A stretch of 64,000 nt of DNA from a virus (taxonomy: Duplodnaviria > Caudoviricetes), in IMG/VR virus record IMGVR_UViG_3300005841_000939. The stretch is one strand, 5' to 3'. Within the stretch, counting starts at the first letter, position 1. Every line of letters starts with the position of its first letter. The notes under the pieces were generated by a model that was not told the DNA's origin, made no database searches, and worked only from the letters and a program-made list of their open reading frames with translations. Positions 1-42,967 of this stretch are shown piece by piece. Position numbers and translations under genes: made by a program.

Positions 1-800
1 ACTTCGGTGCTCTTGGCAAGACGCATGCCGCGAGCAGTCATTTTGGTGATGAAAGCCTGCGCGGCTGATTCAAACCCCGGGACAGGAGAAGTGAGGTCAG
101 TGAGAAGAACAATCTTCTTCACGTAGTCGTCGTTGCCGAATGCATCAGCGAGGTCGATGACCGTATTCGCCACGCAGTGAGACAGTGCCTGACCAGCGAT
201 GAACAGATCATCGCAATCATTTTGCAGGGTGGTGACGAGGGGAACGTTCAGACCAGTCGAAGGATCCTCAGGATCGGGCACTTCAGCCTTGATGGCCGAA
301 TAGTGTTCGGTGAACATGTTGCTGCCTTTGGTGACCTTGTCCACCACATTACCAGCGACATCTTCCCAATCCGTAAGAGATTGGAGAACCGAAGTTTCCA
401 CACAAGCACCAGGGGTGCCGATGCGACAGTGAGGCGGCCAGATGCAGAGAGGATAGCGACCACCAGCTTTCAAGGCACGAGTGTATGCCAGAGCCTTCTT
501 GAACGTTGATGGAACAGAAACATTCCATATACCATTCACCACGTCCTCATCGGGGATGATCGTGAAAGGAACAGGATGGTTGCCGTTGCGATCCTTCCAG
601 AAGATCGGATGGGCGATGTCGAAATGATGATGCGAATCCAAGGTGACGTGAATATCAGCCAGACGATCACCGACACGTTTCACGAACGTTGCCGTACGGT
701 CGCAGTCATCGGGCGAACCTGCGACGAAAAGAGACCCTGCAGGATTGCAGAAATCCACTTGAGGATCGATCAACAGAAGATGTGGACGTGCGATAGCCAT
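1..800 (-). CDS. pncA: Nicotinamidase/pyrazinamidase (isochorismatase-family cysteine hydrolase); 3' end runs off the window
   Basis: Not in the ORF track. Manual translation from the ATG at 800 (AAGGA RBS upstream) gives MAIARPHLLLIDPQVDFC...TLDSHHHFDIAH...WPPHCRIGTPG...KGSNMFTEHYS...GQALSHCVANT, open to base 1. The catalytic Asp, Lys and Cys and the metal ligands match PncA. Confidence 0.85.
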   Translation of the reverse strand, partial: MAIARPHLLLIDPQVDFCNPAGSLFVAGSPDDCDRTATFVKRVGDRLADIHVTLDSHHHFDIAHPIFWKDRNGNHPVPFTIIPDEDVVNGIWNVSVPSTFKKALAYTRALKAGGRYPLCIWPPHCRIGTPGACVETSVLQSLTDWEDVAGNVVDKVTKGSNMFTEHYSAIKAEVPDPEDPSTGLNVPLVTTLQNDCDDLFIAGQALSHCVANTVIDLADAFGNDDYVKKIVLLTDLTSPVPGFESAAQAFITKMTARGMRLAKSTE

Positions 801-859
801 GTATGTTCCTTTGGAGGGTAGGAACTCACTCTAATGCATTACCACCTTAAGTCAATACG

Positions 860-1180
860 CTATTCCTTTTCCAATATTCCAATGAGGATTGCTCTATTAA
901 GTTCATCTTTTGTCCAATCAAGGCCAGTTTCTTTCTTCAAGGCAGCTAAAACCTCAACCGTCTGATTTCTTAGAACACCAAAAATTCTCTCTTGGAGGAT
1001 TTTATAAACCTCTTTTCCATTTACTCTTACAGATTTATATTCCTTTAAATCATCAGTATACAGATTATCAACAATGAGAAAATTCCAAGAAGTAGGTTTT
1101 ACTACTTTTTCAATTTTCTTTTTAACAGCTTTTTTCTTAGTAGGCATTTGTTCTTTCTTAAACCAAATCGCTTTGTTCAA
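860..1180 (-). CDS. Hypothetical protein
   Basis: 106-aa ORF in the co-directional gene string; no recognisable motif. Confidence 0.5.
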   Translation of the reverse strand: MNKAIWFKKEQMPTKKKAVKKKIEKVVKPTSWNFLIVDNLYTDDLKEYKSVRVNGKEVYKILQERIFGVLRNQTVEVLAALKKETGLDWTKDELNRAILIGILEKE

Positions 1181-1415
1181 TTTTTCTTTTGCGCAAACAG
1201 TTAGTGAAATTTTCTGGCTTTATGTTTCCATCAATTGCCTTCTCTACTTTTAAACGACAATCACCCAAATGCTTTTTTAATTCTTCAACTTTACTTTCAT
1301 CCATAGCCAAATTGAGATTCATTTTAAACACTTCAATATTTTCCATGAGAAATGGACGCCAAGCGCAACCATTACCATCAATTATTACATTTGCAGGATC
1401 TATTTTCCAAGTCAT
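1158..1415 (-). CDS. Hypothetical protein
   Basis: 85-aa ORF with an ATGA overlap to the upstream NUDIX stop. Confidence 0.55.
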   Translation of the reverse strand: MTWKIDPANVIIDGNGCAWRPFLMENIEVFKMNLNLAMDESKVEELKKHLGDCRLKVEKAIDGNIKPENFTNCLRKRKIEQSDLV

Positions 1416-1831
1416 TTTATATATTTCTGTTTTACAAAGTGTGATTGAGTCTCATGTATTCTATCAACTGCATCTTTAGGATCTATCATTTCCCATTTAT
1501 CAATTTCAAAATATCCTTTTTCAGTCTTTGTTGAACAAAGCAATTTTTCAACTTCTATAACAAATTTTACTTTAATCCAAAAAGCAATTAACTTTTTCTT
1601 TTTATGCCCGTAAGCTTTTTCTCCAAGCAATTCAAGCTCATCATGCGCCCAATTTAATTCTAAACCAGTTTCTTCTCGGGTTTCTCTTATTGCAGTTTCA
1701 ACATCAGTTTCACCTTCATTCTTTTTACCCTTTGGAATAGACCAACCAATACTATCTTTAATTCCATGCGGCCTACAAATCAATATTTTACCGGTTGCAT
1801 CTTCAATAATTATTCCACATGTTTTTATCAT
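1412..1831 (-). CDS. NUDIX hydrolase
   Basis: Nudix box GKKNEGETDVETAIRETREETGL (GX5EX7REUXEEXGU). Confidence 0.88.
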   Translation of the reverse strand: MIKTCGIIIEDATGKILICRPHGIKDSIGWSIPKGKKNEGETDVETAIRETREETGLELNWAHDELELLGEKAYGHKKKKLIAFWIKVKFVIEVEKLLCSTKTEKGYFEIDKWEMIDPKDAVDRIHETQSHFVKQKYIK

Positions 1832-2259: not shown

Positions 2260-2491
2260 TTTTGTTCTTTGATTCTACCCAATCTATACATTTTTGCAAA
2301 GTCCAGTTACTAGAAATATCCACACATTCGTAAACTACTTCTTTTTCATCGGGATCAATTATTTGAGAAAACCATGCGCCAGATTTCCATTGTCTAGGTT
2401 TAACAATAGCATAAACCTTTTTCTTTGGTGCTGGTGGAACTTCTTCTTGTTTTGGTGTCTCTTCGGGAACTGGAGGTACTTCGTCAGTCAT
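2234..2491 (-). CDS. Hypothetical protein
   Basis: 85-aa ORF with AGGAG upstream, coupled to its neighbours. Confidence 0.55.
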   Translation of the reverse strand: MTDEVPPVPEETPKQEEVPPAPKKKVYAIVKPRQWKSGAWFSQIIDPDEKEVVYECVDISSNWTLQKCIDWVESKNKNANTTTPT

Positions 2492-2688
2492 GAATGTCTT
2501 TCTCCTTCTTGAAAAATTAACATAGATGGTACCTCAATTATTTGATAGGTATCCATATATTGACAATGTGAACTATTTTTAAAAAACTCAAATGCCCAAC
2601 CTGGTGTTTCAAAATCACCACATAGATCATTAAACCCACCCTTTGAATCAGGTGAATTCCAAGCAAATAAATAATATCTTGTTTTCAC
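2488..2688 (-). CDS. Hypothetical protein
   Basis: 66-aa ORF with an ATGA overlap to the downstream gene. Confidence 0.5.
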   Translation of the reverse strand: MKTRYYLFAWNSPDSKGGFNDLCGDFETPGWAFEFFKNSSHCQYMDTYQIIEVPSMLIFQEGERHS

Positions 2689-2712
2689 ACTGCATATTAT
2701 AGTGAAAAATAA

Positions 2713-3387
2713 TTAAATAGCACCCAAATAATTAAGGTAATCTTCATCCTGACGAATTTCATCAAGAACATTAGCAGGAGTCATCGTTGCAGCGACATTC
2801 CATTTTTCGTTTTTAATTGCTACACGAAGCATGGTTGATGAAATATGCGGAATATCAGCATGAATAATTCGATGACGTTCTTCATCATAAAATGGACGCG
2901 ATTTCAATACATCAACAGATAATTTTTCACGATTGAGCACAACCAAATTTGTTGATGAAATAAGATTTTGCCAATTGTGCCACTTATCAAGATTGGCAAA
3001 ATTATCTCCACCAATAATAAGGGTTGGTCTATTAATTCCTTCATGCGAACGAAGTATGTTAACCAACCCTTCAGTTGTTCCGGCTAAGTTATTTAATTCC
3101 CAGCTACGAACATCAAGACGCCATTTACATGTGTCAGGTGCATTTCTAAAAAGAAGCTGCAATAATTTTGTTCTTAATTCAAAAAATGGAAGCTCACCTT
3201 TAAACTTATGTAAAGCAGCAGGTAAAAAAGAAACTCGCTGAACATGGCCATCAAGAATTAAACTTTTAGCTATTTCCAAGTGCGCAAATGTTGGTGGATT
3301 AAAAGCTCCACCAAAAAAAGCTAAATTTGTAGTTGTCGGAATTTTATTCGTCAGATTCGTCTGAAGTTTTTCGTCTGATACGTGCAT
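2713..3387 (-). CDS. nadD: Nicotinate/nicotinamide mononucleotide adenylyltransferase (NadD family)
   Basis: FFGGAFNPPTFAH (HxGH-like), IIGGDNFANLDKWHNW and ISSTMLR motifs. Confidence 0.85.
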   Translation of the reverse strand: MHVSDEKLQTNLTNKIPTTTNLAFFGGAFNPPTFAHLEIAKSLILDGHVQRVSFLPAALHKFKGELPFFELRTKLLQLLFRNAPDTCKWRLDVRSWELNNLAGTTEGLVNILRSHEGINRPTLIIGGDNFANLDKWHNWQNLISSTNLVVLNREKLSVDVLKSRPFYDEERHRIIHADIPHISSTMLRVAIKNEKWNVAATMTPANVLDEIRQDEDYLNYLGAI

Positions 3388-3592
3388 TTCTGATTAATCC
3401 TTCAAGTTTTATATCAATATATAAATTTAAGGCTATGACTATACACAGACCAGTGAAAAACACAACAGGTTGTTTATCGGCATGCAATCCAAGGTTGGCA
3501 GTTACTATTGCATATATAAAAGAACCAAGGAATACTAATAGCATAATTAAGCCTTGTTGAGAATTACCAAAACCTCGTTCCATGGCGAACAA
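3344..3592 (-). CDS. Small membrane protein (two hydrophobic segments)
   Basis: LIMLLVFLGSFIYAIV and VVFFTGLCIVIALNLY hydrophobic stretches. Confidence 0.5.
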   Translation of the reverse strand: MFAMERGFGNSQQGLIMLLVFLGSFIYAIVTANLGLHADKQPVVFFTGLCIVIALNLYIDIKLEGLIRNARIRRKTSDESDE

Positions 3593-3990
3593 TTCAAAGC
3601 CTCAATCATTTTTACTACATTGCGGCGAATAGATGGATCCTTGATTGGATTGTCCAATTTACCAATTTCCAAGATACGTTCAGGAGATCCTATAATTTCA
3701 ATCAAATGAGCATGCAAATGTTTGTGAGTAGTGGAACCCATTTTGATAAAATGATCAATGTTACGCTTCTCTTGTTTCAGCGTGACATTATCAGTACCTG
3801 ATTTTTCTTTCCAGTCATGAGGCTTCATGTCTGTGTGTGCAAATCGTTCGGTGATACTTTGTTCCAATCTTTCAGAGACTGTGACCCAGGCACCACCAGC
3901 AAGTTTCTGCATGAGGACTTCTTGTCCATCAGGCATCTTTACAGTTGAATATGAATTAAGGACAGTTGCAGTTGGATCAAAGTCTGGCAT
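3547..3990 (-). CDS. Hypothetical protein
   Basis: 147-aa ORF in the operon string. Confidence 0.55.
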   Translation of the reverse strand: MPDFDPTATVLNSYSTVKMPDGQEVLMQKLAGGAWVTVSERLEQSITERFAHTDMKPHDWKEKSGTDNVTLKQEKRNIDHFIKMGSTTHKHLHAHLIEIIGSPERILEIGKLDNPIKDPSIRRNVVKMIEALNCSPWNEVLVILNKA

Positions 3991-3992
3991 GA

Positions 3993-4256
3993 TTATTTGG
4001 TTTCTACCAATTTATTATCAATGTCAATATACTTTCCATCTTTATTAACTTTTACCCAATGTGTCGTACCAGATCCTACAATGCAACGTTCTTCATATCC
4101 ATTTTCAGCATAAAACCTAGTTTCTTTTATATTATAATCATAAATCAACCATGAAATTAAACCTACAGTTGAACATATTAAAAAAATAACTATGAGTAGA
4201 GTTGAGTCTTTCATAAAATAACCTTTATTTGCTTGCGTAAATGTATGGACAACCAT
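3993..4256 (-). CDS. Small single-TM membrane protein (true start probably the internal ATG, MKDSTLL)
   Basis: One hydrophobic segment, LLIVIFLICSTVGLISWLIY. Confidence 0.5.
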   Translation of the reverse strand: MVVHTFTQANKGYFMKDSTLLIVIFLICSTVGLISWLIYDYNIKETRFYAENGYEERCIVGSGTTHWVKVNKDGKYIDIDNKLVETK

Positions 4257-5178
4257 ACAGTGATTTCAAATCATTTCCACCAGAATATGAAATTGATGAT
4301 TGCAGGTCTTCTCTCAATTCCTTGATAAGCTTTTCCATTGGTCCTTTATAATCAACGAAAATTTTCTTACCTTCAACGTTCTTATATTCACCTTTATTTG
4401 TATCTGACGCTGAACCAAAATATGCTTTTTTCATATGGCCATTTATTTCCAACATCTCTCCTGCGGATTCTTCATATCCTGCAAATAGATTGCCAGCCAT
4501 GACCATGTGAGCACCAAGAGCCAAAGCCTTTGCAATATCACCATGATGTTGAATTCCACCATCTGCAATAATTGGAACTGTTGCGGCTTTTACACATTCT
4601 TGAACAGTACTTACCATAGGACGATGGAAACCAGTCTTAAACTTTGTTGTACAGACCGAACCACCAGCAATGCCAACTTTGATTGCTTGTGCTCCCCATT
4701 CTTCTAAATCAAATACTGCTTTGTCTGTTGCGACATTGCCTGCAATCAAAAATGTATTGGGAAGTGCATTGCGAATATACTTGATCATTTTCTCACCTTT
4801 TGAACACCATGCATTGGCAATATCAAGGGTGATGAATTCTGGTAATAGATTCTGTGCAATCATATTATTTATTTGTTCATATGATTCGTAATTTACACCA
4901 ATAGAAATACTAGCGATATGACCTTTATCATGCATTTCATCAATAAATTGACATGGATCAACTTCAAATCTGTGCATGGTATAAAACCATTTATTTTCAC
5001 AGAAAAAATCACATGTTCTATTATTAATAACAGACTTCATATTTGCAGCATAGACCGGCATCGCAAATTTATATTTGCCCAACTCTACCTCAGTATTACA
5101 ATCTTTTCTTGATTCAACAATTGTCTTTTGTGGAATCAAGTGAATATCAGAATAGTGAAACTCTTGTGTAATTGTCAT
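4225..5178 (-). CDS. guaC: GMP reductase
   Basis: DIHLIPQK, ANMKSVI, LDIANAW, GNVAT, KVGIAGGSVCTT (catalytic Cys), IIADGGI and GSAS motifs; short GuaC type without CBS domains. Confidence 0.92.
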   Translation of the reverse strand: MTITQEFHYSDIHLIPQKTIVESRKDCNTEVELGKYKFAMPVYAANMKSVINNRTCDFFCENKWFYTMHRFEVDPCQFIDEMHDKGHIASISIGVNYESYEQINNMIAQNLLPEFITLDIANAWCSKGEKMIKYIRNALPNTFLIAGNVATDKAVFDLEEWGAQAIKVGIAGGSVCTTKFKTGFHRPMVSTVQECVKAATVPIIADGGIQHHGDIAKALALGAHMVMAGNLFAGYEESAGEMLEINGHMKKAYFGSASDTNKGEYKNVEGKKIFVDYKGPMEKLIKELREDLQSSISYSGGNDLKSLYGCPYIYASK

Positions 5179-5886: not shown

Positions 5887-6444
5887 TTAGCGAGTACGCA
5901 CCTTGCGTTCAAATATCACATCATGATTTTTATCTGTAACAATATGATTCGTATAAATGAATTTCTTGTGATGAATCGCAGGATCAAATTTTGGTGCGGT
6001 TTCGTTCTCAACACCCTTAAACAAAGTAACGTGTGGTTTATAAGTAGGATATTCTGATGGGGGATAATCACCAACAGTTGTCATCCAAGAATTTATTTTA
6101 TTGAACCATTCATGCATACCTGGAGATTCTAATTCAGTGACAATGCATCCTTTATTGAATAGACTAAACTTTGAAGTAAACGCTTCAATTTCAGGTAATG
6201 GTAAACCATCCAACCATTCAACAAATCTTTCTGGATTTTGACCTGAAAGCATTTTCACATAACGAATAGTTGTATGGAAATGATCAGGTTCTTCTTTTTC
6301 TCCACCTTGCATAATTGGTGCTAATGCATTTTGTAATGCAAGAGCTTCACTGATGTATGGTTCTTCAAGGTAAAGCATGTAGCAAAATGTGGGAACTTTA
6401 TCTTCCTCATTAAGTAATACAAACTCATTAAATGGAGGGATCAT
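5887..6444 (-). CDS. 2H phosphoesterase, T4 gp57B/Acb1-like
   Basis: Two HxT motifs (FHTTIRY and YKPHVTL) spaced as in T4 57B (IHSTICY...YTPHITL), plus an N-terminal YxxxY strand. Confidence 0.72.
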   Translation of the reverse strand: MIPPFNEFVLLNEEDKVPTFCYMLYLEEPYISEALALQNALAPIMQGGEKEEPDHFHTTIRYVKMLSGQNPERFVEWLDGLPLPEIEAFTSKFSLFNKGCIVTELESPGMHEWFNKINSWMTTVGDYPPSEYPTYKPHVTLFKGVENETAPKFDPAIHHKKFIYTNHIVTDKNHDVIFERKVRTR

Positions 6445-7131: not shown

Positions 7132-7169
7132 GAAAACAAAGAAGCCCTGATGCTTTCGCACCAGAGCTT
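7132..7169 (-). terminator. Rho-independent terminator
   Basis: Minus strand reads AAGCTCTGGTGC-GAAA-GCATCAGGGCTT followed by CTTTGTTTT, directly after the stop at 7189. Confidence 0.7.
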
Positions 7170-7188: not shown

Positions 7189-8076
7189 TCAGCCCTTGGA
7201 CAGGACGATTTTCTTGCTGAAAGCCTTTGCCTTGACAGTACTTGCGATAGCAAGCCCGGCTCTTTCCAGATTGGCAGCCGAGAGACGGAAGCCGCCGATG
7301 GCGCGACGATCACCAGCAGCACTTTCCTCGATAGTGATGGAATTCGGATGATACGTGATCATTACCAGTTCATCACGCAGGGCAGCAGCATCGATGATCT
7401 TGATGGGAATTTCCAGCTTACCATCATTGCGCTTGGAGATTACCGATTCATTGTCCAGAGCAGACGAAGTGCTCTTGGTAGCCTTTGGAGCAGCAGCCGA
7501 AGTCGTTGGCGCAGCCAGAGCAGGAGTTGCTGCGATGGATGGCGAACCAACAGGAGCAGCCTGCTGGCCAAGGGACAGCGCGACCTGGGCGCGATTCTGG
7601 TATGCAGCAGGATCGGTATTGTCAGGGTGATAGAGCAGCGCGCGGGCAGGGCCAGTTGGAGTCTGGACCGTGATTTCCGTGGACGTATATCCCCGACCGA
7701 CGATCATGCCATCAGCGATAGCGCGACCATCCTTGCGCACTTCGGAATGTCCGACGAAGCCATGCCCGTCAGACTTGACCTTGTTGCTGATGTCCAGCAT
7801 GGTGAACATGCCGAACTGATTGATGAAGTGGTTCAGAGCATCCGTGATGCGCTGGACGAGAGATGGGGTTGCGAGAGCGTTCATTGACTGGTCCTTGGGT
7901 TGATTTGGATCGAAAGGGATATCGGATTCGTAGATGATGTGTTCTTCGTGTTGATGAGATCGATTTATCGTGTATGGGATCTTTTTTTCATGAAGATATA
8001 AGAGGACTTTTTGTCCTGCTATTAGAGCCTTTGCTCCACCATTTCTTAAATCGATTTTGAAGATTTGTTGTGTCAT
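7189..8076 (-). CDS. Hypothetical protein (possible second start at 7884, MNALATP, with an AAGGA RBS)
   Basis: 295-aa ORF; the part downstream of about 7900 is markedly GC-rich; contains an Ala/Pro linker. Confidence 0.6.
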   Translation of the reverse strand: MTQQIFKIDLRNGGAKALIAGQKVLLYLHEKKIPYTINRSHQHEEHIIYESDIPFDPNQPKDQSMNALATPSLVQRITDALNHFINQFGMFTMLDISNKVKSDGHGFVGHSEVRKDGRAIADGMIVGRGYTSTEITVQTPTGPARALLYHPDNTDPAAYQNRAQVALSLGQQAAPVGSPSIAATPALAAPTTSAAAPKATKSTSSALDNESVISKRNDGKLEIPIKIIDAAALRDELVMITYHPNSITIEESAAGDRRAIGGFRLSAANLERAGLAIASTVKAKAFSKKIVLSKG

Positions 8077-9007: not shown

Positions 9008-10411
9008 TTAACGTTCAACCTCGATGATATACTTAATGCTGTACTGATCAACAGTATAGACGATGAATTCGTCAAACGCCAATGAACGATATGAACCACC
9101 ATGCCCAGGCTTACCCCACGTTGAATCAAAACCTCCACGACGGGCTTCCTCGCGTTCACCACCATCGCCATAAGGCTTGATCAACTGCTTACCGAGTTTT
9201 GCATCAAGCACGAACAGGAAGCAATTGGTGGTATTTCGCTGATTCGGAAATGACAGCACGCTGTAATTCAGGCTCTTGGTACTGTGCGAAGCAGCATAGA
9301 GGCCTTTACCGAATGCATAGCCAGTCATGGGAGCTTCGGGAGGAGCGATTTTCAAACCACTCTTCAAGATACCGACGATGTTTGAATTACGGCTTCCATG
9401 CCACAATTCAGCCGGAGTTCCAAGCTTACACGCCTCAAAACGAGCACGTTCCGAAGGAATTACGACCTTGAGGATGTTCTTGACCTTGGTATTTACGTAG
9501 TGCGAATTGCCCTTAGTGGCTTGAACTTTCTTATCAAGACGAATCCATTCAGGATCAGTCTTTTCAAGATAGGAAAGCTGCACACCAAGTTCCTGATATT
9601 TCACCGCAGCACCAGAGACATACGAAGAACCGCCGACTTCAAGCGCATCATCCATCATTTGGAGGAGATCGAACTTGGTATCAACGATTTCGAGGGTGCT
9701 GAGAAGATCCGAATCCAGGATCTTTCTGCCGAGCTTGGTTGGAATGTGCGAATAGAACGCACTGGTCAGGATCTTGATTTGATCATCATCCTTTTTCTTG
9801 ATGGCTTTTGTCAAGTCACCAAGCACATCGCGACCTTTGGCGATTTGTGCGAATGTGAGGATACCAAGTGGAGTCTTCAAACCTTCACTGGTAATTTCAA
9901 TTGCAGAGTTGGATTGAATTGCGTTTGAGGAATCTGCAAACCACTGTTCGATAAGACGCTCCACAGTAGAATGGAGGACGACAGCCGGAGTCTTGGGATC
10001 CTTGGATTCGGTAATCTTCTTCTTTTTATCAGCCGGAACCTCAGCAGAATCAACACCCCAGCTTTTTTCACGCGCTTTGAGGGTGCCAACCGTGGGCTTG
10101 ACGAACTTGATTTCCTTGTACTTCTTTTCGCGAATCTTTTCCTTGCACTTGGATTCATATTCCGAGCGCATGTCTTGCTCATCGGAAGGTCCATAGTAAT
10201 CAAGGACACCATTATCGCCAACACGGCCATAATGGCACATGACCAGCCATTGACCATTTTTCAGCTTCAGGAGTTCAGCGGAGAAGTACTTGTTGTTATT
10301 GGCGATAGCATCCGTCTGATTACCGACGCGATGGGCGATCACCTCATATCCGGGAAAAGCAGCCTCCACACCTTCAAGGCCATCTTTGAACTTAACTGCT
10401 TTCCAAGCCAT
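9008..10411 (-). CDS. Poly(ADP-ribose) polymerase-like protein: WGR + helical regulatory + catalytic domains
   Basis: WGR-like HYGRVGDNG; regulatory FYSHIPTKLG...DLLQMMDD; catalytic LWHGSRNSNIVGILKSGLKIAPPEAPMTGYAFGKGLYAA...SLNY...FDEFIVY, matching PARP1 WHGS/GKGIYFA/YNEYIVY; GGAG RBS. Confidence 0.9.
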   Translation of the reverse strand: MAWKAVKFKDGLEGVEAAFPGYEVIAHRVGNQTDAIANNNKYFSAELLKLKNGQWLVMCHYGRVGDNGVLDYYGPSDEQDMRSEYESKCKEKIREKKYKEIKFVKPTVGTLKAREKSWGVDSAEVPADKKKKITESKDPKTPAVVLHSTVERLIEQWFADSSNAIQSNSAIEITSEGLKTPLGILTFAQIAKGRDVLGDLTKAIKKKDDDQIKILTSAFYSHIPTKLGRKILDSDLLSTLEIVDTKFDLLQMMDDALEVGGSSYVSGAAVKYQELGVQLSYLEKTDPEWIRLDKKVQATKGNSHYVNTKVKNILKVVIPSERARFEACKLGTPAELWHGSRNSNIVGILKSGLKIAPPEAPMTGYAFGKGLYAASHSTKSLNYSVLSFPNQRNTTNCFLFVLDAKLGKQLIKPYGDGGEREEARRGGFDSTWGKPGHGGSYRSLAFDEFIVYTVDQYSIKYIIEVER

Positions 10412-10741: not shown

Positions 10742-12415
10742 TTACTTCAAGTCAGATTTAAGATTAATAGCTGCAACCAATGATTCTCCATCAACAGCGC
10801 GATTATCTTCTTTGCAAATACATTGGGTTAGACGTATTGCATTTTTAATTTCACGGCCATTCATATCAACCTTACTGAGTACTGCAATTGACTTTTCATC
10901 AATTTCCAATTCAGCAGCTTTGAGTAAATTCACCCAAACTTTTTGACGTGCAACATCATCAAGTGCATCATATTTAATAGTCAATGTGATACGACTGTGG
11001 AAAGCTTGATCAAGATTCTTGGCACGATTAGTTGTCAAGAAAATGATTCCTTGATGATATTCAAGTAGACGCAAGAAAATACTGACAAGAGCATTTCTTT
11101 CAATGTCATTGGCTGTTCTCTCTTCAAGGAAAAGATCAGCTTCATCAATCAATAGCACAGCATTCCATGATGAAACAATGTCAAGAACTTGAGTCAAATT
11201 TTCTTCAAGTTCTTTTGCATTTGTACCAAGTTCACCTACAGTGATTGGATACAAAGGACGCTTGAGATAATCTGCGACTGTTTCAGCAGTCAATGTCTTA
11301 CCAACACCTGGTGTACCATGCAGAAGGAAGATACAACCGCCACTCTTTTCAGCAATAATATCCTTGAAAGAACTATTATAGTGAGTGATCAATGATTTGA
11401 TAACCTTTTTCTTTTCAGGATCAAGAACAATTTTATCAAAATTCAATGGATTAAATTGAAATTCTGAAACTTGTTCAATGTTGATTAAACCCCAATCTTT
11501 TAACTTGTAACTGAAAGCTTCAATCCAAGGAATAATCATCCAACGTGAATCTTCAGAGATGTTCTTAATAACAGTTGAATCATCACTTGCTTGTCCGCGA
11601 GAAGAAATTTTGTCAAACCCAACCTTATCAATTTGAACTTTTTTACCAGCATTTCTGAAACGATCACCAAACCAGCTTTTGAAAAGCATTTCACCTGAAT
11701 ATGAAACATAATGATTGCCAATGCAATACTTTTCAAGTTTCAACCCTCTTTCATTGAGGTTATCTTTTTCTTCTGGTGAGAGGAATTGTACTGGTAATTC
11801 GTTTGGAGACACATTTCCCTTGAAAAGTGGTATTTCAACTTCTCCATTGGTTTCTAGGAAAGTTTTTCCATTGGAACCAATATTCTTGTAACTAATAACA
11901 AATCTTGTTCCACCCCAACCTGCAGCAACATGAGTTGATGTAATAATTCCACCACACTTCAAACCACTTTGCAAGAATACAATTTCTTTATCCTCTTTAA
12001 ACAAATATGGCAACAAGAAAAAACTTATCTTGTTCATTGAAGTAATATCTTGAATCAACTTATCACGATATTTGCCACATTCAGCAAAGAATGATTTGCA
12101 ATCAGGATATGATGATGTTTGAACGTTTTGAAAATCGTCTACATCAGAGAAAATTTCATAAATTGGAATTTTATAAATTTCTCTTTTTTTATATAAGGTT
12201 TCAAAACTGCAAACTTCACGAAGACGTGAAATTAATTTTGCATTTGAAACTACTGCATATGGAACGCCTTCATGAGTTTCAAATATAAAAGATTCTGTTT
12301 TTGCAGTTTCTTTAGATTTTGAAACCTTCTTTACTGCTTTCTTCGCAGGTACAGGCTTAACAGGTGCAGTGTTGGCTACTAATTTTTTTAAAGATGGTTT
12401 TGGCATATGCGCCAA
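10742..12415 (-). CDS. AAA+ ATPase
   Basis: Walker A GTPGVGKT, Walker B LLIDEAD, sensor TTNR and the AFHSRI arginine finger. The LLHG.PG.GKTLTAE/FLRLLEY style resembles a family common in fungi and some bacteria and viruses. Confidence 0.88.
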   Translation of the reverse strand: MAHMPKPSLKKLVANTAPVKPVPAKKAVKKVSKSKETAKTESFIFETHEGVPYAVVSNAKLISRLREVCSFETLYKKREIYKIPIYEIFSDVDDFQNVQTSSYPDCKSFFAECGKYRDKLIQDITSMNKISFFLLPYLFKEDKEIVFLQSGLKCGGIITSTHVAAGWGGTRFVISYKNIGSNGKTFLETNGEVEIPLFKGNVSPNELPVQFLSPEEKDNLNERGLKLEKYCIGNHYVSYSGEMLFKSWFGDRFRNAGKKVQIDKVGFDKISSRGQASDDSTVIKNISEDSRWMIIPWIEAFSYKLKDWGLINIEQVSEFQFNPLNFDKIVLDPEKKKVIKSLITHYNSSFKDIIAEKSGGCIFLLHGTPGVGKTLTAETVADYLKRPLYPITVGELGTNAKELEENLTQVLDIVSSWNAVLLIDEADLFLEERTANDIERNALVSIFLRLLEYHQGIIFLTTNRAKNLDQAFHSRITLTIKYDALDDVARQKVWVNLLKAAELEIDEKSIAVLSKVDMNGREIKNAIRLTQCICKEDNRAVDGESLVAAINLKSDLK

Positions 12416-12444: not shown

Positions 12445-15400
12445 TTATTTTTTCAAATACGAAACCTTATCATCTGAGAGTATTTCTTGTGCTTCTGGAT
12501 GTTCCTGACGGAATTTATCAGCAGCACTTTTAAATGTTGGTAGACGGAACACAGCCTTCTTTATCAAAGAATTAAAATTCTTATTTTGACGTTCCAATTC
12601 ACGATCATTCATTCTGTCTTTTTCACTGTAATGTGATGAATCAGGATTTTGTGTTGGTTCAGGCGCTGGTGTATCTACAGATGGTGCAGAAACTTCTGAT
12701 TGACCTACAGCAGGCTCAGTTGTGTGCGAAGCTGCATCCTTGGCAGTTTTCCAAACATCATAATCATGAACTAAGGTAGCTGATGTTGCTTCTGGAAATT
12801 TTGACAAACCTTGAAGAATTTTTATATTGGAAGCATAAGGAGCAAGTTCCTTCTTTACTTCATCTATCTTTGCAATGATCTTCTTCTTTTTATCAATTTC
12901 AGTTGAACTCTTGAATTGTTTATTTAGGTCTTCAAGTTGTGCTGATAATTGATCAGACATTTTTTTATTACGGACAATGTCTTGAATTGTCTTATCTGTG
13001 AAAACTGCATCTTTATTTTCTGTAGCAGCAGGAACAACTGGTGTTACGTTTTCCAATGGTTCAGCATCAGCAGGAATCTTATCCTTTGAAGGATATAGAC
13101 GATAGTTACCCTTTACCTTTGCTTTTACCCATGCTGGATTGTCTTTGATGAACTTATCTGCTTTGTTACCAAATTTCTTGCCAAAGGAAATAAATTCGCC
13201 ATTGTTCTTGTTGTAATTCTTGAGAATCTTTTCATCAGCAGTATGAATTGCTGTTGGTTCGGCTTCTGGTGCAGGTGGCGCTGATACATCAACTGGTGCA
13301 GGAGCGACTGATGTTGGTGCGGCGGGTGCATTCAATTGATCAGGTGTACCTGCGACTGCATTTGCAATATCTGAACTTACAGATTTTGCTGGTTCTTTAG
13401 GATCAGTAACTGGTGCACCTTTAGGAGTTTCAGCATCTTTAGGTTTATCATCTGCAAATGCTTTGAGAATTCTATCAATCTCATCTTTTTCAATTGGTGT
13501 TCCAGGATTTATTTTCTTGATTGGATCTAATGGCTCAGTTTTATGATTTACTTTTGTTGCAGGATACTCACCAGTTTCTGGCTTATCAATAGGCTCAGTT
13601 TCTGCGGGTGTATTCAAATTTACTTTATTGGTTGGTGTAGTATCAACATCATCATTAGGAAATGGACTTTCCTCGCTTGATGCATCGTCCATAGCTTTTT
13701 GAATTGTACCAATAAGATCCTTTGTCTTATTTCCAATCATTTCATCTTTTTTAATCTCTGGTTTTATTTCAGTATCAATTTCTTGCTTGATTTGATCAGC
13801 TTTGTCTTTGTTTGGCTCAAACAATGAAAAGTCATCAGCGTGATGTTTTACAGAATCATATGATTTTTGTTCTGCGGCAACTTCTGCTATGGCTTGATTG
13901 GTATAGTCAATCATTCCACGAAGTTTTTGTACTTCTGGACGCTTTTCAAAACGGGTACCTTGATAGTTTTTGAAATCTGCTTCTAACAACTCTTTTTGCA
14001 ACTTCAGTGATTGCAAACGATATTTGAAGTGCTTATCCAACGCTTTAATCATACGATTAAAAATACGTTCCAATTCTTTTGCATTCTTTTTTGGTGTTGC
14101 TTCAAGTTTAGCATCTGAAATTTTGGAGAAGAGATTTAATGCACCTTCTGCAACCATTTCTGGTTCTTCTTTTTCAGCTTCATCTTGTGAATCATCAATT
14201 TTTGCAAAACTTAAACGCAAATCAGTTTGTTTGACTTCATCATAAATTTCATGTGCTACATCACGATCATGCTCAATTGACGCAATTTGATTATCAAGCT
14301 CACTTACACGCGCATTGTCTTGATCAAGCTCTTGAGCAAATTCAGTAGCAGCTTTATATGCTTCCAATTGTGCATCATATTGTTTGATGACAGAATCCAA
14401 ATATTTAAGAGTCTTACCACGAACAGTCAATCCTGATGTTTTAAGAATCCAATCTTTTGCACCATTGAATTTTTCTTTCCAATCCTCTTCAAGTTGATAA
14501 GAAGGAAGTAATACTTTTTCGCGTTCATCTTCTTGACAATCTGTGCAACCATCTTCACCTGCTTCATTAACAACAATACTTTCAAACATTCTTGAAAGTT
14601 TACTTTCTTGAACACTATTTACTTGACCAGGGGGTTGTGAAACTGGTTTTTTAGTTTCTTCTGAATCACTTGGTTGTGGTGTTGGTGGTTGAGTTGGATC
14701 AGTCGCTTGGGCTGATGAATCGCCTTTCCATTTTGGAACTTTTTTACCATCAGCAGTATCCCAAGTCCATGTATCAAATACACGGAGATGTGTCACTGTA
14801 TTATCAGTCACAATTTCATATGTTTGATAATACAATGGAGCCTCTGTACCCAAGAAATTCGTATTTTCTTTACTAAGACTTTTTCCTGGTGCTGCTTGTG
14901 TATTATATTGATTAATTTGATTGAGTTTTGAACGACAGACTTTTATGACTGCGTTAACATCAAAAAGCAATTGTCCAGAATCAACTTTTGTTTCCAATAC
15001 GATACCGCCAACGGGTTCACCTTTATCAGCATCATAATCTGTTGCTAATTTCTTTGATTCAGACGCATTGGTTGTCCATGATGAAATAACATCTTGTGAA
15101 GCAAAATCTACTTGTGAACCAATTGCAGGAAGATTTTCAAATTGATCGCCACGACGAACTGGAAAACCTTTAAAAATTTTATATTCTTGTGCAAGTCCAA
15201 ATCCAACAAACTTACGGGCAGCAGCCGAACGTGAAAGAACATCTAAAACGTCCATTGTCAAGTCACGCTTTGATTTTGTGCCAGTACCTTTGACAATATC
15301 AGTCACTCTTGAAAGAATGATATTGATTTCACTAGGACGTATTGCCAACAATTGCATGAATTGTTGATCATTCATTTCCACACGTTCCAAGTGTAAATAT

Positions 15401-15462
15401 TGGCTTACTTGCTGAGCCTCAAAAATATTGATAAGGTCCATATTTATAATATCCCGTTCCAT
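12445..15462 (-). CDS. Large acidic, probably virion-internal protein with a possible N-terminal ADP-ribosyltransferase-like domain (alternative start at 15441, MDLINIFEAQ)
   Basis: TATAAATA box immediately upstream; IFE/MFE/VNE motifs; IFKG...ISSWTT...GGIVLE...QTYEIV pattern; long Pro/Asp/Glu/Lys low-complexity C-terminal half. Confidence 0.55.
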   Translation of the reverse strand: MERDIINMDLINIFEAQQVSQYLHLERVEMNDQQFMQLLAIRPSEINIILSRVTDIVKGTGTKSKRDLTMDVLDVLSRSAAARKFVGFGLAQEYKIFKGFPVRRGDQFENLPAIGSQVDFASQDVISSWTTNASESKKLATDYDADKGEPVGGIVLETKVDSGQLLFDVNAVIKVCRSKLNQINQYNTQAAPGKSLSKENTNFLGTEAPLYYQTYEIVTDNTVTHLRVFDTWTWDTADGKKVPKWKGDSSAQATDPTQPPTPQPSDSEETKKPVSQPPGQVNSVQESKLSRMFESIVVNEAGEDGCTDCQEDEREKVLLPSYQLEEDWKEKFNGAKDWILKTSGLTVRGKTLKYLDSVIKQYDAQLEAYKAATEFAQELDQDNARVSELDNQIASIEHDRDVAHEIYDEVKQTDLRLSFAKIDDSQDEAEKEEPEMVAEGALNLFSKISDAKLEATPKKNAKELERIFNRMIKALDKHFKYRLQSLKLQKELLEADFKNYQGTRFEKRPEVQKLRGMIDYTNQAIAEVAAEQKSYDSVKHHADDFSLFEPNKDKADQIKQEIDTEIKPEIKKDEMIGNKTKDLIGTIQKAMDDASSEESPFPNDDVDTTPTNKVNLNTPAETEPIDKPETGEYPATKVNHKTEPLDPIKKINPGTPIEKDEIDRILKAFADDKPKDAETPKGAPVTDPKEPAKSVSSDIANAVAGTPDQLNAPAAPTSVAPAPVDVSAPPAPEAEPTAIHTADEKILKNYNKNNGEFISFGKKFGNKADKFIKDNPAWVKAKVKGNYRLYPSKDKIPADAEPLENVTPVVPAATENKDAVFTDKTIQDIVRNKKMSDQLSAQLEDLNKQFKSSTEIDKKKKIIAKIDEVKKELAPYASNIKILQGLSKFPEATSATLVHDYDVWKTAKDAASHTTEPAVGQSEVSAPSVDTPAPEPTQNPDSSHYSEKDRMNDRELERQNKNFNSLIKKAVFRLPTFKSAADKFRQEHPEAQEILSDDKVSYLKK

Positions 15463-25139: not shown

Positions 25140-25727
25140 TTATTTGACTAATGGCTCTTTTATTTTATAACCTAGATGTTTTTCTATTTCAATAATCACT
25201 GCATCAATAGATTCTCTGTTTTTTGTTGCAGTAATATAGGGCAATTGTTCTTTATCTAAGAATGTTTGAATGTTATTATCAATCTGTTTTGATTGCTCAA
25301 GAGTTTGTGTTCTACCAGCTTGTTGATATTTTCCATGCATTCTCTCAATCAAAATATTGAGATTATTTTTACGCTTGTATGTTTCTAGAACTAAGGTTTT
25401 AAATGCATCATCAATTGCTTGAGCAATTGGCTTGTAATAAAACAAACCAATTAAGATTGGACTATCGGTAATAATGATGTCAACTTTACCTTCCAAACGA
25501 TCCTGGCGATATAATTGATTGGCGGTTGTATAAAATTGATTATTTAAGGCACACCAATTCTCTTCCCATGTAAAATCTTTAGCTACCTCAGTAACTAATT
25601 CACAATTTACACCTAAAGTCTTCAATTTATGAAATAATCCTGCCGAAAAAGTAGACTTTCCAGCATTTGGACCTCCATAACAGTTAATAATCAATGGTGT
25701 TTTAGCAATAATAGGTTTGTCTGTCAT
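25140..25727 (-). CDS. P-loop kinase, NadR/AAA_28-like
   Basis: INCYGGPNAGKST Walker A, ELVTEVAK and IITDSPIL motifs of the phage NadR-type nucleotide kinase family. Confidence 0.7.
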   Translation of the reverse strand: MTDKPIIAKTPLIINCYGGPNAGKSTFSAGLFHKLKTLGVNCELVTEVAKDFTWEENWCALNNQFYTTANQLYRQDRLEGKVDIIITDSPILIGLFYYKPIAQAIDDAFKTLVLETYKRKNNLNILIERMHGKYQQAGRTQTLEQSKQIDNNIQTFLDKEQLPYITATKNRESIDAVIIEIEKHLGYKIKEPLVK

Positions 25728-32927: not shown

Positions 32928-32978
32928 TTGAATTTTCTTCTATACAATAGAAGTGAATTCATTTAAGAAAGAAAAATA

Positions 32979-34480: not shown

Positions 34481-34483
34481 ATA
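34476..34483 (+). promoter_or_regulatory. T4-late-type promoter TATAAATA
   Basis: Overlaps the DHH stop, upstream of 34510. Confidence 0.45.
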
Positions 34484-34509
34484 AATCCGATTTCGCATAT
34501 ACTTATGAA

Positions 34510-34728: not shown

Positions 34729-35054
34729 TGGCTTCTTCACCAAAGAAAAAGAAATTTGAGATTTTAGAAGATTCAACATCAGGTTTACGACTTCCGCTTG
34801 ATTTGCTGCTAATACATGATGTTGAAGATTTAGAAGATTCTTTATCCGCCAAATGGGTTGTAGAATCTGATGGAGCAATAACATTTCATAAAACAGATTA
34901 TGATTTAGAACTATTCGTTGAAGATTTAGATGAATTCAAATATTACCAATTAGATGATATTGAACATGATCGTATTCACGCTGCTATTGAATTACTAAAT
35001 AAAGCAGAAGATGATAATTTCTTAGATCATATTCTCAATCGTTTAGTTAGATAA
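34728..35054 (+). CDS. Hypothetical acidic protein
   Basis: 108-aa ORF. Confidence 0.55.
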   Translation: MASSPKKKKFEILEDSTSGLRLPLDLLLIHDVEDLEDSLSAKWVVESDGAITFHKTDYDLELFVEDLDEFKYYQLDDIEHDRIHAAIELLNKAEDDNFLDHILNRLVR

Positions 35055-35100
35055 TTACGTAATTTTGGTTCTCCTGGATTTATTATATAATGATAAAAGT

Positions 35101-35108
35101 TATAAATA
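35101..35108 (+). promoter_or_regulatory. T4-late-type promoter TATAAATA
   Basis: Exact match 25 nt upstream of 35134, with a GGAG RBS in between. Confidence 0.65.
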
Positions 35109-35133
35109 GTCTTTAATCTCACGGAGTGACCTA

Positions 35134-40254: not shown

Positions 40255-41727
40255 TTATTCCTTTTCTAGGCAAACATCACATTTGCCGCATGGTTTTGTT
40301 AATGATCTATCACCGAAGTATGTAAGAACTTGCAGAAGACGACAGTCTGACCTATTGTCTACTAAATTCACCATATCTTGTAGAAGTTTGATTTTATGGT
40401 TTTTTCTCTTTTGTAAAGTATCAAATTTTGGATGATTTTCATCAATACGGTCTACATATTTAACCTTATACATACCTTTACCTTCAGTCTCAACAATACC
40501 AAACAGCTTTAATGCTGTGATTGATCCACTGATGAAGTCGCCTTTTATTTCAGCTTCTTCGGCCATTTGTGCTTGTGTCTTATTGACAATTGACCCATGT
40601 TTAGCTTCAAAATTCAAATATTCCCATAACTTGATAATAGTATCCTTATCAGGGAATCTCATATTGATGAAAAGATTTTGCAGATACATATCCTGGCCCA
40701 TATTCACAAACGTATCGCAATATGATTCTGCGCCATCACGGCCCGCTCTACCAATTTCTTGATACCATGCTTCAATCGTTCCTGGCATACCAGCATGAAT
40801 TACATAACGAACATCCGATTTATCTACACCCATGCCAAATGAACATGTTGCAATAATTGGACCACCTACTTCAAACCAATCATTCTGAATCTGTTCACGC
40901 TCTTTTGACCCTAAACCAGCATGATAAACTCTAGCATGTGTACCAAATCGTTTTATTCCCATCGCAATATCTTCTGCGTTATTTCTTGTACCAGAATAAA
41001 TGATTCCAGTGGGCATACCCTTTTCTACATAATCTATAGCTTGACGAATTACTGTATTATCTCGTTCACCTTTACCTTTTAAAGATGTTATATTAATATT
41101 TAAATTTGACCTGAAGAATCCTTGAACAAATTTCTTTGCATTATGAATTCCAAGTTGAATGACAATATCTTGCTGAACAGTTTTAGTTGCAGTTGCTGTT
41201 ACTGCGATGACTTGTTTTGGTTTTAAACGTTTTATTACTTCACCCAACTTACGATATGTTGGACGAAAATCTTGACCGTATTGTGAAATGCAGTGACTTT
41301 CATCAACTGCGAAAATATTAATTCCAGTTTCTGCAAGCATTGTCAAAAATGCTTCATCTTCAAATCTTTCAGGAGCAACATATAAAATATCAACAATTCC
41401 AAAAAGAATTCCGGCTCGTACCGATTCTTTTTCTTTTGCATTCATTGATGAATTATAGTATTGAGCACTAACACCTTTTCTCTTCAATGTATCAACTTGA
41501 TCTTGCATCAAAGAAATAAGTGGTGAAATAACAATGCTTAATCCTTCCATCATTAACGATGGAATCTGAAATAGTAAACTTTTACCCTTGCCTGTTGGAA
41601 GAATTGCCAATATACCTTTATTTGTTTCATAATCTAGAGCAGCGTCAATAATTTCGCCCTGCCCCTCTCTAAAAGTTTCGTATTTAAAAACTTCTGTTAA
41701 TACTTCTTCTTTTGTTTTATAAGCCAT
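40255..41727 (-). CDS. recQ: RecQ-family DNA helicase
   Basis: PTGKGKSLLFQ, SPLISLMQDQV, VDESHCISQYGQDFRP, ATAT, YHAGL, FGMGVDK, QEIGRAGRDG and a Zn-binding CR...CGKCDVC; no HRDC domain. Confidence 0.92.
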   Translation of the reverse strand: MAYKTKEEVLTEVFKYETFREGQGEIIDAALDYETNKGILAILPTGKGKSLLFQIPSLMMEGLSIVISPLISLMQDQVDTLKRKGVSAQYYNSSMNAKEKESVRAGILFGIVDILYVAPERFEDEAFLTMLAETGINIFAVDESHCISQYGQDFRPTYRKLGEVIKRLKPKQVIAVTATATKTVQQDIVIQLGIHNAKKFVQGFFRSNLNINITSLKGKGERDNTVIRQAIDYVEKGMPTGIIYSGTRNNAEDIAMGIKRFGTHARVYHAGLGSKEREQIQNDWFEVGGPIIATCSFGMGVDKSDVRYVIHAGMPGTIEAWYQEIGRAGRDGAESYCDTFVNMGQDMYLQNLFINMRFPDKDTIIKLWEYLNFEAKHGSIVNKTQAQMAEEAEIKGDFISGSITALKLFGIVETEGKGMYKVKYVDRIDENHPKFDTLQKRKNHKIKLLQDMVNLVDNRSDCRLLQVLTYFGDRSLTKPCGKCDVCLEKE

Positions 41728-41737
41728 TCATTTGATT

Positions 41738-42463
41738 TTATCCATGAGCTAACGCTAAACAATACGCAGTTTTCTTGATTTCAGCGTGCAGATTAGCTCT
41801 TGCCTTTGATTCAAATGGCTTGAAGGCATCAGTACGATATAAGGAAGTTCTCTTATCTAATTGATTGAGAAAATCAAGTCTTCCAGTATATAATGCTTTA
41901 GGTTCATAAAGATCAGAAAATTCAGCAATAATTGCTTTATTCATTTCATCAAAATCTTCTGTATCCGCAGCAAATCCAGCAAGGTCAATATCCATCAAAA
42001 GATTGACATTTTGTTTATGAACGCCTTGGTCATCCCACCAAGCACACAGCGTGTCCTTGAGATGTTCAGATGTTGCTGAAATATAATTGTAAAGATAAAT
42101 TCCTTCCTGTTTAGAAATAAATTTATCCATAATTGCAATTGCAAAGTTAGCTGAATTCTCTTCATTCTTTTTATTTCCAGGGATATAGATGGCATCGTGG
42201 AATAAGAATGCTAATCCAACTTCTTTATTAACATCAATTTTGTTTTTATTGCAAAAATCAACACACCATGCAAGATGCGCAACGGTATGATAATGAACAT
42301 TATCATGATTCATTGAAAATGTCACCAAGTCAACAATCCACGCTATATAAACTTCATCAATTTTATATTCATCTAAAACGTTTCCAAAAAAATTAAGTAT
42401 TATAAGCCTTGTGTTATCAAAATCCGAAGAATCTTGAGTATCATGAATATCGTAAAATTTCAT
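41738..42463 (-). CDS. HD-superfamily metal-dependent phosphohydrolase
   Basis: YHTVAHL, FHDAIY, NEENSA and MDIDLA motifs. Confidence 0.8.
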   Translation of the reverse strand: MKFYDIHDTQDSSDFDNTRLIILNFFGNVLDEYKIDEVYIAWIVDLVTFSMNHDNVHYHTVAHLAWCVDFCNKNKIDVNKEVGLAFLFHDAIYIPGNKKNEENSANFAIAIMDKFISKQEGIYLYNYISATSEHLKDTLCAWWDDQGVHKQNVNLLMDIDLAGFAADTEDFDEMNKAIIAEFSDLYEPKALYTGRLDFLNQLDKRTSLYRTDAFKPFESKARANLHAEIKKTAYCLALAHG

Positions 42464-42466
42464 AAG

Positions 42467-42967
42467 TCACTTAAATTTATAAATGGTTGTGGGGATGTCG
42501 TTATTGATCCAAATTTCTTGGATCAAGGCTTCAAGGATATTCCAATCGCCACCAGCTAAACCAGCACCAAACATAGGAGCATGAATTGATCCTCCATTTT
42601 TTGATACTACTTTACGAACACGGTCCATAGCTTGAGCAACAGCCAAATATCTGATTGGAGCATTACCCTTTTCATCTTGCCCCATCATATGCTGGCCGAT
42701 CATATTGCAGATGATTGTATTTTTAGGTTCTACTTGAACGTATTGGACTTGACCCAAGGCAAATGGAATGCTGGTATCACCGACTTTCCAAATCTTGTCG
42801 CTATGCCATTTCTTATAGTTTACCCTGGGAGCATCCCAACGGGCATTTAAAGCAGCAACAAACCCACTTCCATAACCACCAATATCATTGCAAACATGGG
42901 GAATGAATTTAAGTCCTTCAACGACTGATTCTAAACAGTCTCCTTCAACATAATTGATGATGCTCAT
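42467..42967 (-). CDS. Macrodomain protein (TARG1/DarG-like ADP-ribose hydrolase)
   Basis: YVEGD, HVCNDIGGYGSGFVAAL, NMIGQH and PMFGAGLAGGDW motifs. Confidence 0.85.
   Translation of the reverse strand: MSIINYVEGDCLESVVEGLKFIPHVCNDIGGYGSGFVAALNARWDAPRVNYKKWHSDKIWKVGDTSIPFALGQVQYVQVEPKNTIICNMIGQHMMGQDEKGNAPIRYLAVAQAMDRVRKVVSKNGGSIHAPMFGAGLAGGDWNILEALIQEIWINNDIPTTIYKFK

Follow-up and report, generated by a model that had tools for sequence, protein, structure and literature searches.

The 64-kb stretch of phage DNA analysed here (the window; IMG/VR record IMGVR_UViG_3300005841_000939) encodes a PARP alongside genes of NAD+ and ADP-ribose metabolism, a combination that an earlier note had read as a self-contained, coordinated circuit of ADP-ribose writers, an eraser and NAD+ recycling. 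We find it somewhat probable that what is present is a PARP-centred module accompanied by separately organised, host-dependent NAD/ADP-ribose genes, and not a closed circuit. The comparison with relatives supports a winged-helix/MraZ-like putative DNA-binding protein as the constant companion of the PARP in its clade, and a looser, lineage-dependent association of the PARP with a nicotinamidase and an eraser. The circuit as first proposed does not hold together: the NAD+ route is incomplete, the NUDIX hydrolase does not resemble those of the ADP-ribose type, the macrodomain lies 32 kb away beside a RecQ helicase, and DUF4326 adjoins the PARP in this genome only. The window corresponds, on the minus strand, to positions 102471-166470 (C1) of an IMG/VR phage record that consists of one contig of 262,529 bp and represents the genome of a soil phage (G000), with an estimated completeness of 97%.

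The PARP and the gene behind it

The features of the core module are as follows.

9008..10411, minus strand: PARP, 467 amino acids (aa), composed of a WGR, a helical regulatory and a catalytic domain, its H-Y-E triad intact
7189..8076, minus strand: P0142, conserved PARP partner, 295 aa, recognised by synteny and fold
7142..7169, minus strand: terminator-like hairpin with a 12-bp stem and a T tract, 20 nt past the partner stop, from a consensus scan only

All three PARP domains exceeded the Pfam gathering scores (PF00644, 1.1e-27; PARP_reg PF02877, 3.8e-13; WGR PF05406, 9e-09) and none of the catalytic residues H338, Y372 and E448 varies among 26 relatives, thus confirming that the PARP placed at 9008 is real. 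The domain order, WGR, helical domain (HD) and then catalytic ADP-ribosyltransferase (ART) domain, and the H-Y-E triad are those of the DNA-dependent PARPs (the PARP1-3 clade), and the closest non-phage homologues carry source names of the PARP2/3-like type. However, identity to PARP2-like homologues is only ~25-33%, and the phage protein differs from the DNA-dependent PARPs in being without N-terminal extensions, zinc fingers and BRCT domains, in being phage-encoded, and in having a dedicated small DNA-binding neighbour gene. PARP hits were found in 15 of 50,697 GenBank phage records. PARP relatives were gathered from metagenomes and IMG/VR, and four whole phage records (G001-G004) and six metagenomic contigs were compared. 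A megablast search of the PARP region against GenBank phages gave no match and a scan of IMG/VR with a single PARP sequence returned nothing, the IMG/VR relatives surfacing only when an alignment was used as the query.

Wherever a partner homologue is detectable it lies directly downstream of the PARP and on the same strand. This is the case at 16 loci (G000-G004, L002, L003, L007, L070-L073, LR756511, G010, G019 and G032), at which the PARPs are only 31-53% identical to that of G000. In G003 the two genes are only 10 bp apart and in G004 11 bp, and the 16 loci include that of the 595-kb phage LR756511 and those of three further IMG/VR genomes. By synteny, the core module consists of the PARP, the winged-helix/MraZ-like protein and then the terminator-like hairpin. 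In P0142 a linker rich in Pro, Thr and Ala joins a winged-helix region (~70-155) to an MraZ/AbrB-like double-hairpin region (~208-295), and the family has no hit in Pfam or PHROG. A word-indexed homologue search with the partner recovered one relative only, and tblastn against GenBank phages gave one weak match, which pointed to the PARP locus of LR756511. Prediction of a complex between the PARP and partner residues 68-295, made with our own alignments, scored 0.00, a value that counts neither for nor against binding. A putative DNA-binding partner gene conserved behind a clade of phage PARPs offers a tangible starting point for finding what the PARPs of the bacterial world work together with.

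In two relatives, homing-endonuclease-like genes (DUF723, with a faint NUMOD3 match) lie on the opposite strand between the PARP and the partner (L070, 9440-10606; L072, 5765-6592), and the pair thus tolerates insertions.

The nicotinamidase and the NAD+ route

Three genes bear on the recycling of NAD+, which the earlier note had taken to be complete within the phage.

3..800, minus strand: putative divergent nicotinamidase (PncA-like), full open reading frame (ORF) of 269 aa, with its stop 10 nt beyond window position 1
2713..3387, minus strand: predicted NadD-type nicotinate mononucleotide adenylyltransferase
25140..25727, minus strand: stand-alone AAA_28 (NadR/Ttd14-type) P-loop protein

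The nicotinamidase falls under the profile cut-offs (PF00857, 19 bits against 27; PncA equivalog NF008623, 23.5 against 174). Its active-site motifs are nevertheless spanned by local alignments with PncA of M. tuberculosis, Pnc1 of yeast and the nicotinamidase of Leishmania (3pl1, 2h0r and 3r2j), and the catalytic Asp12/Lys158/Cys209 and the metal ligands Asp55/His57/His124 (D-x-H, WPPHC) are invariant in 24 relatives. JGI gives relatives of the protein the name 'nicotinamidase-related amidase'. Because the catalytic and metal residues align and are invariant, the ORF at 3-800 was accepted as a putative divergent nicotinamidase despite its poor scores; the nicotinamidase called at position 1 is therefore retained, its active site being intact though the protein is divergent.

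The family to which it belongs is large and mostly unnamed (5516 metagenomic proteins and 203 IMG/VR contigs, with only four GenBank phage records) and is enriched in PARP-bearing phages. Among 25 large contigs chosen for the nicotinamidase family alone, nine (36%) encode a PARP, as do two of three huge GenBank phages with a nicotinamidase, and the association is significant against baselines of 2-10%. This enrichment suggests that product clearance, or entry into the Preiss-Handler pathway, may be a phage strategy distinct from the NAD+ reconstitution pathways NARP1-3. In the complete 205-kb phage G024, five genes form a contiguous array on one strand, namely a PARP, a 301-aa gene that follows it after 4 bp, a macro-like gene, a nicotinamidase and a VWA-like gene.

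Beyond window position 1 (genome positions 166492-175257), a VWA-domain protein directly follows the nicotinamidase, and after it come genes without assignment, a PP2C phosphatase and a Ser/Thr kinase-like gene. The pairing of nicotinamidase and VWA gene, with a PP2C gene nearby, recurs in G024. That the NAD pathway might be completed by genes beyond the window start was considered and rejected, as this region holds only the VWA, PP2C and protein kinase genes and those without assignment.

The NadD called at 2713 is supported by its match to TIGR00482 (1.2e-26; 93.9 bits, under the cut-off of 112.45) and by 12 solved matches, all of the named ones being bacterial NadD and one (3h05) uncharacterised, with the nicotinate mononucleotide adenylyltransferase (NaMNAT) of B. 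subtilis as the best (1kam, 3.3e-08). The NadR-like kinase was sustained as a member of the AAA_28 family (PF13521, 32.6 bits against a cut-off of 27, with AAA_28 proteins as all of its atlas neighbours) and no further: it comes from a family of stand-alone phage proteins, has no fused or adjacent nicotinamide mononucleotide adenylyltransferase (NMNAT) domain and no solved relative, and is labelled thymidylate kinase in PHROGs.

Neither a PncB/NadV protein of the NAPRTase family nor NadE was found in the 97%-complete genome, by profile search or by tblastn with the proteins of relatives. With only PncA and NadD, that is, steps 1 and 3 of the Preiss-Handler pathway, the phage would therefore need the PncB and NadE of its host, and self-contained recycling of NAD+ must be given up. 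PncB and NadE are both encoded by each of G001, G002 and G003, and are adjacent in the first two.

The Preiss-Handler clusters of these relatives comprise a glutamine-type NadE (~555 aa) and PncB (G001, 107611-110457; G002, 255633-258877). In G001 a weak nicotinamidase-like gene adjoins them.

The macrodomain and its RecQ neighbour

The gene strands in the window run minus from 25727 to 3, plus over 25934-37980 and minus again from 37977 on. Seven of the eight genes listed in the earlier note therefore lie in one co-directional block of 25.7 kb, and the macrodomain is the one gene in another transcription block, where it adjoins three tRNA genes. All eight were found where they had been placed, six of them firm (PARP, DUF4326, macrodomain, nicotinamidase, NadD and NUDIX) and two soft.

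42467..42982, minus strand: ALC1-like macrodomain of the SCO6735/Bt_1257 subclass, likely start ATG at residue 6
41738..42463, minus strand: 241-aa protein between the macrodomain and RecQ, matching PHROG 19425 'phosphohydrolase' (1.7e-26), with no Pfam family
40255..41727, minus strand: RecQ-family helicase

The macrodomain has no hit in Pfam. It matches SCO6735 of Streptomyces (PDB 5e3b; 1.9e-39 over 164 residues) and Bt_1257 of Bacteroides (2fg1; 1.2e-36), and the equivalents of SCO6735 His24, Val25, Asn27, Gln85 and Gly128 are identical, the roles of these residues in SCO6735, where Gln85 replaces the lysine of TARG1/DarG, having been described previously (PMC9411070). The label TARG1/DarG-like is thus correct. 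The phage protein differs from the SCO6735 class in being phage-encoded and near RecQ, and its mobile loop has one lysine rather than two.

The macrodomain lies 32 kb from the PARP in G000. In G002, where the 241-aa gene is absent, it directly abuts RecQ and is 22 kb from the PARP, whilst in Klebsiella phage FBKp34 a distance of 2.4 kb separates the PARP from an upstream macrodomain of this class. A macro-like gene related to that of G000 was present in eight of ten PARP-selected genomes, which comprise five IMG/VR and five GenBank lineages. Against a published jumbo-phage base rate of 56% this gives p=0.11, or p=0.04 with complete genomes only, values to be read in the light of lineages that are not independent. 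No macrodomain was found in G004 (91% complete), and about 300 GenBank phage records carry the SCO6735 class as compared with the 15 that have a PARP hit. SCO6735 itself removes both glutamate-ADP-ribose made by PARP (PMC5087735) and thymidine-ADP-ribose made by DarT (PMC9411070). Since it acts on both linkages, and given the linkage to RecQ, guarding phage DNA from DarT-type defence would be at least as likely a primary role for the phage macrodomain as erasing the phage's own marks.

Other erasers, namely PARG (PF10021), ADP-ribosylglycohydrolase (ARH; PF03747) and NADAR (PF08719), were searched for in the G000 genome and none was found. A NADAR gene lies ~7 kb downstream of the PARP in G003 (412500-412949) and G004 (189048-189491), and may be an alternative eraser in these two phages, one of which is without an SCO6735-class macrodomain. 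The PARP of the 114-kb contig L073 is a more distant one, and 4-8 kb upstream of it (2275-5834) are genes for an ARH and an NAD-dependent DNA ligase. In GenBank Streptomyces phages, macrodomain homologues (H20, H27, H43 and H46) adjoin genes annotated as Sir2/NAD-dependent deacetylase or ADP-ribosyltransferase, so that the same macrodomain class appears there in a different writer-eraser pairing.

Genes upstream of the PARP and the NUDIX hydrolase

12445..15462, minus strand: 1005-aa protein with an N-terminal ART-like domain (~14713-15462)
10742..12415, minus strand: AAA+ ATPase with an N-terminal DUF7025, 557 aa
10457..10738, minus strand: DUF4326 protein, 93 aa (1.7e-28; 99.5 bits against a cut-off of 25), 45 nt upstream of the PARP
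1412..1831, minus strand: small NUDIX hydrolase, 139 aa (PF00293, 2e-13), adjoining a dCMP deaminase at 1834-2259

The second ART domain that had been assigned to the whole of 12445..15462 could be retained only for the N-terminal ~250 residues. These are the only folded part of the protein, the other ~750 residues being low-complexity or coiled-coil, and their structural model has a predicted local distance difference test (pLDDT) score of 87. Both lists of fold-search matches consist mostly of ADP-ribosyltransferases, weak but consistent, and the atlas search led to DRAT. Across 18 sequences, R103, S-x-W129-T-T and E216 are invariant or near-invariant, and in the model R103 ends the first core strand, S-x-W-T-T ends the next one before a helix, and E216 opens a later strand. 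The motif residues of the R-S-E transferases (Alt/VIP2/DraT-like) would thus have counterparts on matching strands; however, a conserved second acidic or Gln residue, as in a Q/E-x-E motif, is missing. Searched against all PDB chains, a sequence profile of the domain gave no ART match, Pfam scans of all 18 members gave nothing relevant, and PHROGs and NCBIfam gave nothing. From the model and the fold matches, it is rather probable that this N-terminal domain has an ART fold.

Besides G000, the ART-like gene is found upstream of the PARP in G001, G002, L002 and L003 only. The genes directly upstream of the 1005-aa ORF have weak tail-like matches, in line with the reported tendency of ART genes to lie next to morphogenesis genes (PMC9503650). 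The ART-like domains constitute a small family adjoining the PARP and, if the assignment is true, would add to the ADP-ribosyltransferases a branch that had so far gone unrecognised.

A two-gene insertion made up of DUF4326 and the AAA/DUF7025 ATPase separates the ART-like gene from the PARP and was seen in G000 only. The adjacency of DUF4326 to the PARP, pointed out in the earlier note, is real in this genome but is not conserved, as no relative has a DUF4326 near its PARP; in G002 a 60%-identical DUF4326 lies ~59 kb away. No homologue of the ATPase was found in the four related phage genomes, and it matches the anti-phage ATPase IteA weakly (52 bits against a cut-off of 510). The NUDIX hydrolase, which had been put forward as a possible cleaver of ADP-ribose, does have a NUDIX fold, but among solved proteins it comes closest to Dcp2, Ap4A hydrolase, MutT and RppH; NudE reaches only E 0.004, and nothing points to ADP-ribose.

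Proposed mechanism and alternatives

In the mechanism that we propose, the WGR domain would sense DNA ends or nicks arising in infection, and the PARP would then attach ADP-ribose to its own chain, to the DNA-binding partner, to further proteins on DNA or to ends of DNA. In closer relatives the module also includes the divergent ART-like protein, with its long disordered tail, encoded just upstream of the PARP. Nicotinamide is a product inhibitor of PARPs. The nicotinamidase could clear the nicotinamide released by the PARP, the ART-like enzyme and host NADases, thus relieving product inhibition, and the nicotinate formed would be passed to the host PncB, with the phage NadD speeding the next step and the host NadE finishing the route. 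The macrodomain by RecQ may remove mono-ADP-ribose from DNA thymidine following DarT-type attack, and a further substrate could be the Glu/Asp-linked ADP-ribose that the PARP leaves behind. The DUF4326 and AAA ATPase genes are best seen as a probable lineage-specific insertion, and the NUDIX protein as a putative general nucleotide or RNA-cap hydrolase. A stronger form of this proposal, which we put forward tentatively and consider doubtful as a whole, is that the PARP and the winged-helix/MraZ-like protein are a dedicated pair for DNA-end or damage signalling, provided in some lineages, such as that of G024, with its own eraser and product-clearing nicotinamidase, and that the upstream ART-like family is a new ADP-ribosyltransferase branch. 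If true, this would give a first defined working partner, and a physiological logic, for a non-eukaryotic PARP.

Several observations weigh against a PARP-centred module with associated genes and should be considered with it. The partner family was undetected in eight of 11 further PARP-bearing IMG/VR genomes, and a search with a hidden Markov model (HMM) of the family gave no homologue following the PARP in the cultured phages Xoo-sp13, RAS14, FBKp34 and phi17:2, nor in LR756500. The family is therefore either clade-specific or too divergent to be seen; alignment of the family by hhalign with the 301-aa gene behind the G024 PARP gave a probability of 12% and E 0.0023 over 60 winged-helix columns, a hint only. 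When the nicotinamidase contigs are set against a small control of related contigs, the PARP is present in 10 of 26 as compared with 1 of 9 (p=0.13, not significant); the ten GMP-reductase-selected contigs that served as the control are mostly 44-84% complete, and are too few and fragmentary to decide the matter. The association of PARP and nicotinamidase may stem from shared ancestry or genome size. Amongst the nicotinamidase contigs, moreover, the macrodomain is found in three of nine with a PARP and three of 16 without (p=0.36).

The co-occurrence expected by the earlier note was therefore borne out in part. On one side are the nine of 25 nicotinamidase contigs with a PARP, the macro-like genes of PARP-selected genomes, the short distance in FBKp34 and the G024 array; on the other are the macrodomain, distributed independently enough of the PARP to give the value above, and DUF4326, found beside a PARP in G000 only. 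That every gene belongs to one coordinated, self-sufficient and reversible signalling or counter-defence system, in which the PARP and the ART write, the macrodomain erases, NUDIX and DUF4326 clean up ADP-ribose, and PncA, NadD and the NadR-like kinase resynthesise NAD+, is in our judgement very unlikely. Every gene does exist, seven of the eight share a co-directional block, and a compact PARP/macro-like/nicotinamidase array is present in G024. Its chemistry also has precedent, as the macrodomain class can reverse PARP-made Glu-ADP-ribose (PMC5087735) and DUF4326 is predicted to process ADP-ribose phosphates (PMC9503650). However, without PncB, NadE and NadV the NAD+ could not be rebuilt unless by the host, the NUDIX protein is unlike ADP-ribose pyrophosphatases, and the kinase is known only by its AAA_28 membership. 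Moreover, no relative has a homologue of the NUDIX protein or the AAA ATPase, or a DUF4326 near its PARP, and the macrodomain sits in a separate block with RecQ and is missing from G004.

At the other extreme the genes may be uncoupled, the macrodomain with RecQ acting against DarT, PncA and NadD boosting host salvage against NAD+-depleting defences by analogy with NARP1-3, and the PARP and ART-like protein serving host takeover, with their presence in one genome explained only by how common such genes are among jumbo phages. We regard this as possible, though on balance unlikely. Base rates in jumbo phages are indeed high (Macro 56%, ART >40%, and at least one NAD-ADPr component 85%; PMC9503650), RecQ is a conserved neighbour of the macrodomain, SCO6735 rescues cells from DarT (PMC9411070), and NAD+ reconstitution by phages is established as counter-defence (10.1101/2024.02.11.579819; PMC13464706). 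The far greater number of phage records with this macrodomain class than with a PARP, and its indifferent distribution amongst the nicotinamidase contigs, point the same way. However, a PARP in 36% of nicotinamidase contigs, set against 15 of 50,697 GenBank phage records, weighs against uncoupled genes, as do the contiguous array of G024, the proximity of macrodomain and PARP in FBKp34 and the macro-like genes in eight of ten PARP-selected genomes.

A further alternative concerns the target, in that the PARP might cap phosphorylated ends of phage or host DNA under the direction of the partner, with the DNA-active macrodomain by RecQ uncapping them. Human PARP2/3 can ADP-ribosylate phosphorylated DNA ends in vitro. 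The phage PARP shares their WGR-HD-ART architecture, and the partner has two DNA-binding folds. The macrodomain subclass is, in addition, most active on ADP-ribosylated DNA (PMC9411070), and its neighbour is a helicase. However, SCO6735 was tested with thymidine-linked and not phosphate-linked ADP-ribose, some PARP-bearing relatives are without the macrodomain, and the argument is inferential throughout; we consider this explanation very unlikely. The PARP-centred module with separately organised, host-dependent genes thus remains our preferred reading.

Relation to known phage systems

The NAD+-ADPr networks of jumbo phages have been surveyed previously (Iyer et al. 2021, PMC7824862; 2022, PMC9503650), and include PARP/PART, ARTs often near morphogenesis genes, Macro, Nudix, 2H, DUF4326 and NAD+ synthesis, which were proposed to act as writer/eraser 'toggles' and in counter-defence. 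G000 has the same parts list. However, nicotinamidase, PncA and NadD, which are present in G000, are not mentioned in the later survey (PMC9503650), nor was a winged-helix/MraZ-like PARP partner or an ART-like family of the G000 type seen in it. The 'NAD-jumbo phages' (Microbiome 2024, PMC11662467) encode nadD, pncA, pncB and nadE together with NAD consumers including PARP, and have been read as carrying out independent NAD+ synthesis and use. As they are defined by a complete salvage or Preiss-Handler route, G000, with only PncA and NadD, falls outside the definition, and its relatives G001-G003 stand nearer to them.

With NARP1, NARP2 and NARP3 (10.1101/2024.02.11.579819; PMC13464706), G000 shares the presence of phage genes for rebuilding NAD+ from breakdown products in infection. 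It differs in having neither an enzyme of the NAPRTase family, such as the nicotinamide-to-NMN step of NARP2 would need, nor a bifunctional NadR (Adps, Namat and PnuC were not specifically searched for), and in that its predicted route would start with deamidation of nicotinamide and need host PncB and NadE. The concept of a phage PARP with a set of NAD+/ADP-ribose genes is thus already published (PMC7824862, PMC9503650, PMC11662467), and G000 is one more, incomplete example. In these three papers we found neither the family of the PARP partner nor the ART-like family, nor a description of how large the nicotinamidase family is in phages, no literature search having been aimed at the partner. 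As a gene set, G000 adds one jumbo phage to a described pattern; the by-products of the analysis, that is, the partner, the nicotinamidase family and the ART-like family, are worth more.

Other features of the window

5887..6444, minus strand: 2H phosphoesterase (LigT/Acb1-like) in which the H-x-T motif occurs twice, matching Acb1 (anti-CBASS) and LigT weakly
26269-27198, plus strand: 309-aa protein with two 6-pyruvoyl-tetrahydropterin synthase (QueD-like) stretches

The 2H phosphoesterase is kept a few genes downstream of the PARP in G002 and L070 and, by Pfam, in L002, and its substrates could be cyclic nucleotides or the cyclic phosphate of ADP-ribose. The QueD-like gene lies near the AAA_28 gene and probably belongs to a deazaguanine pathway.

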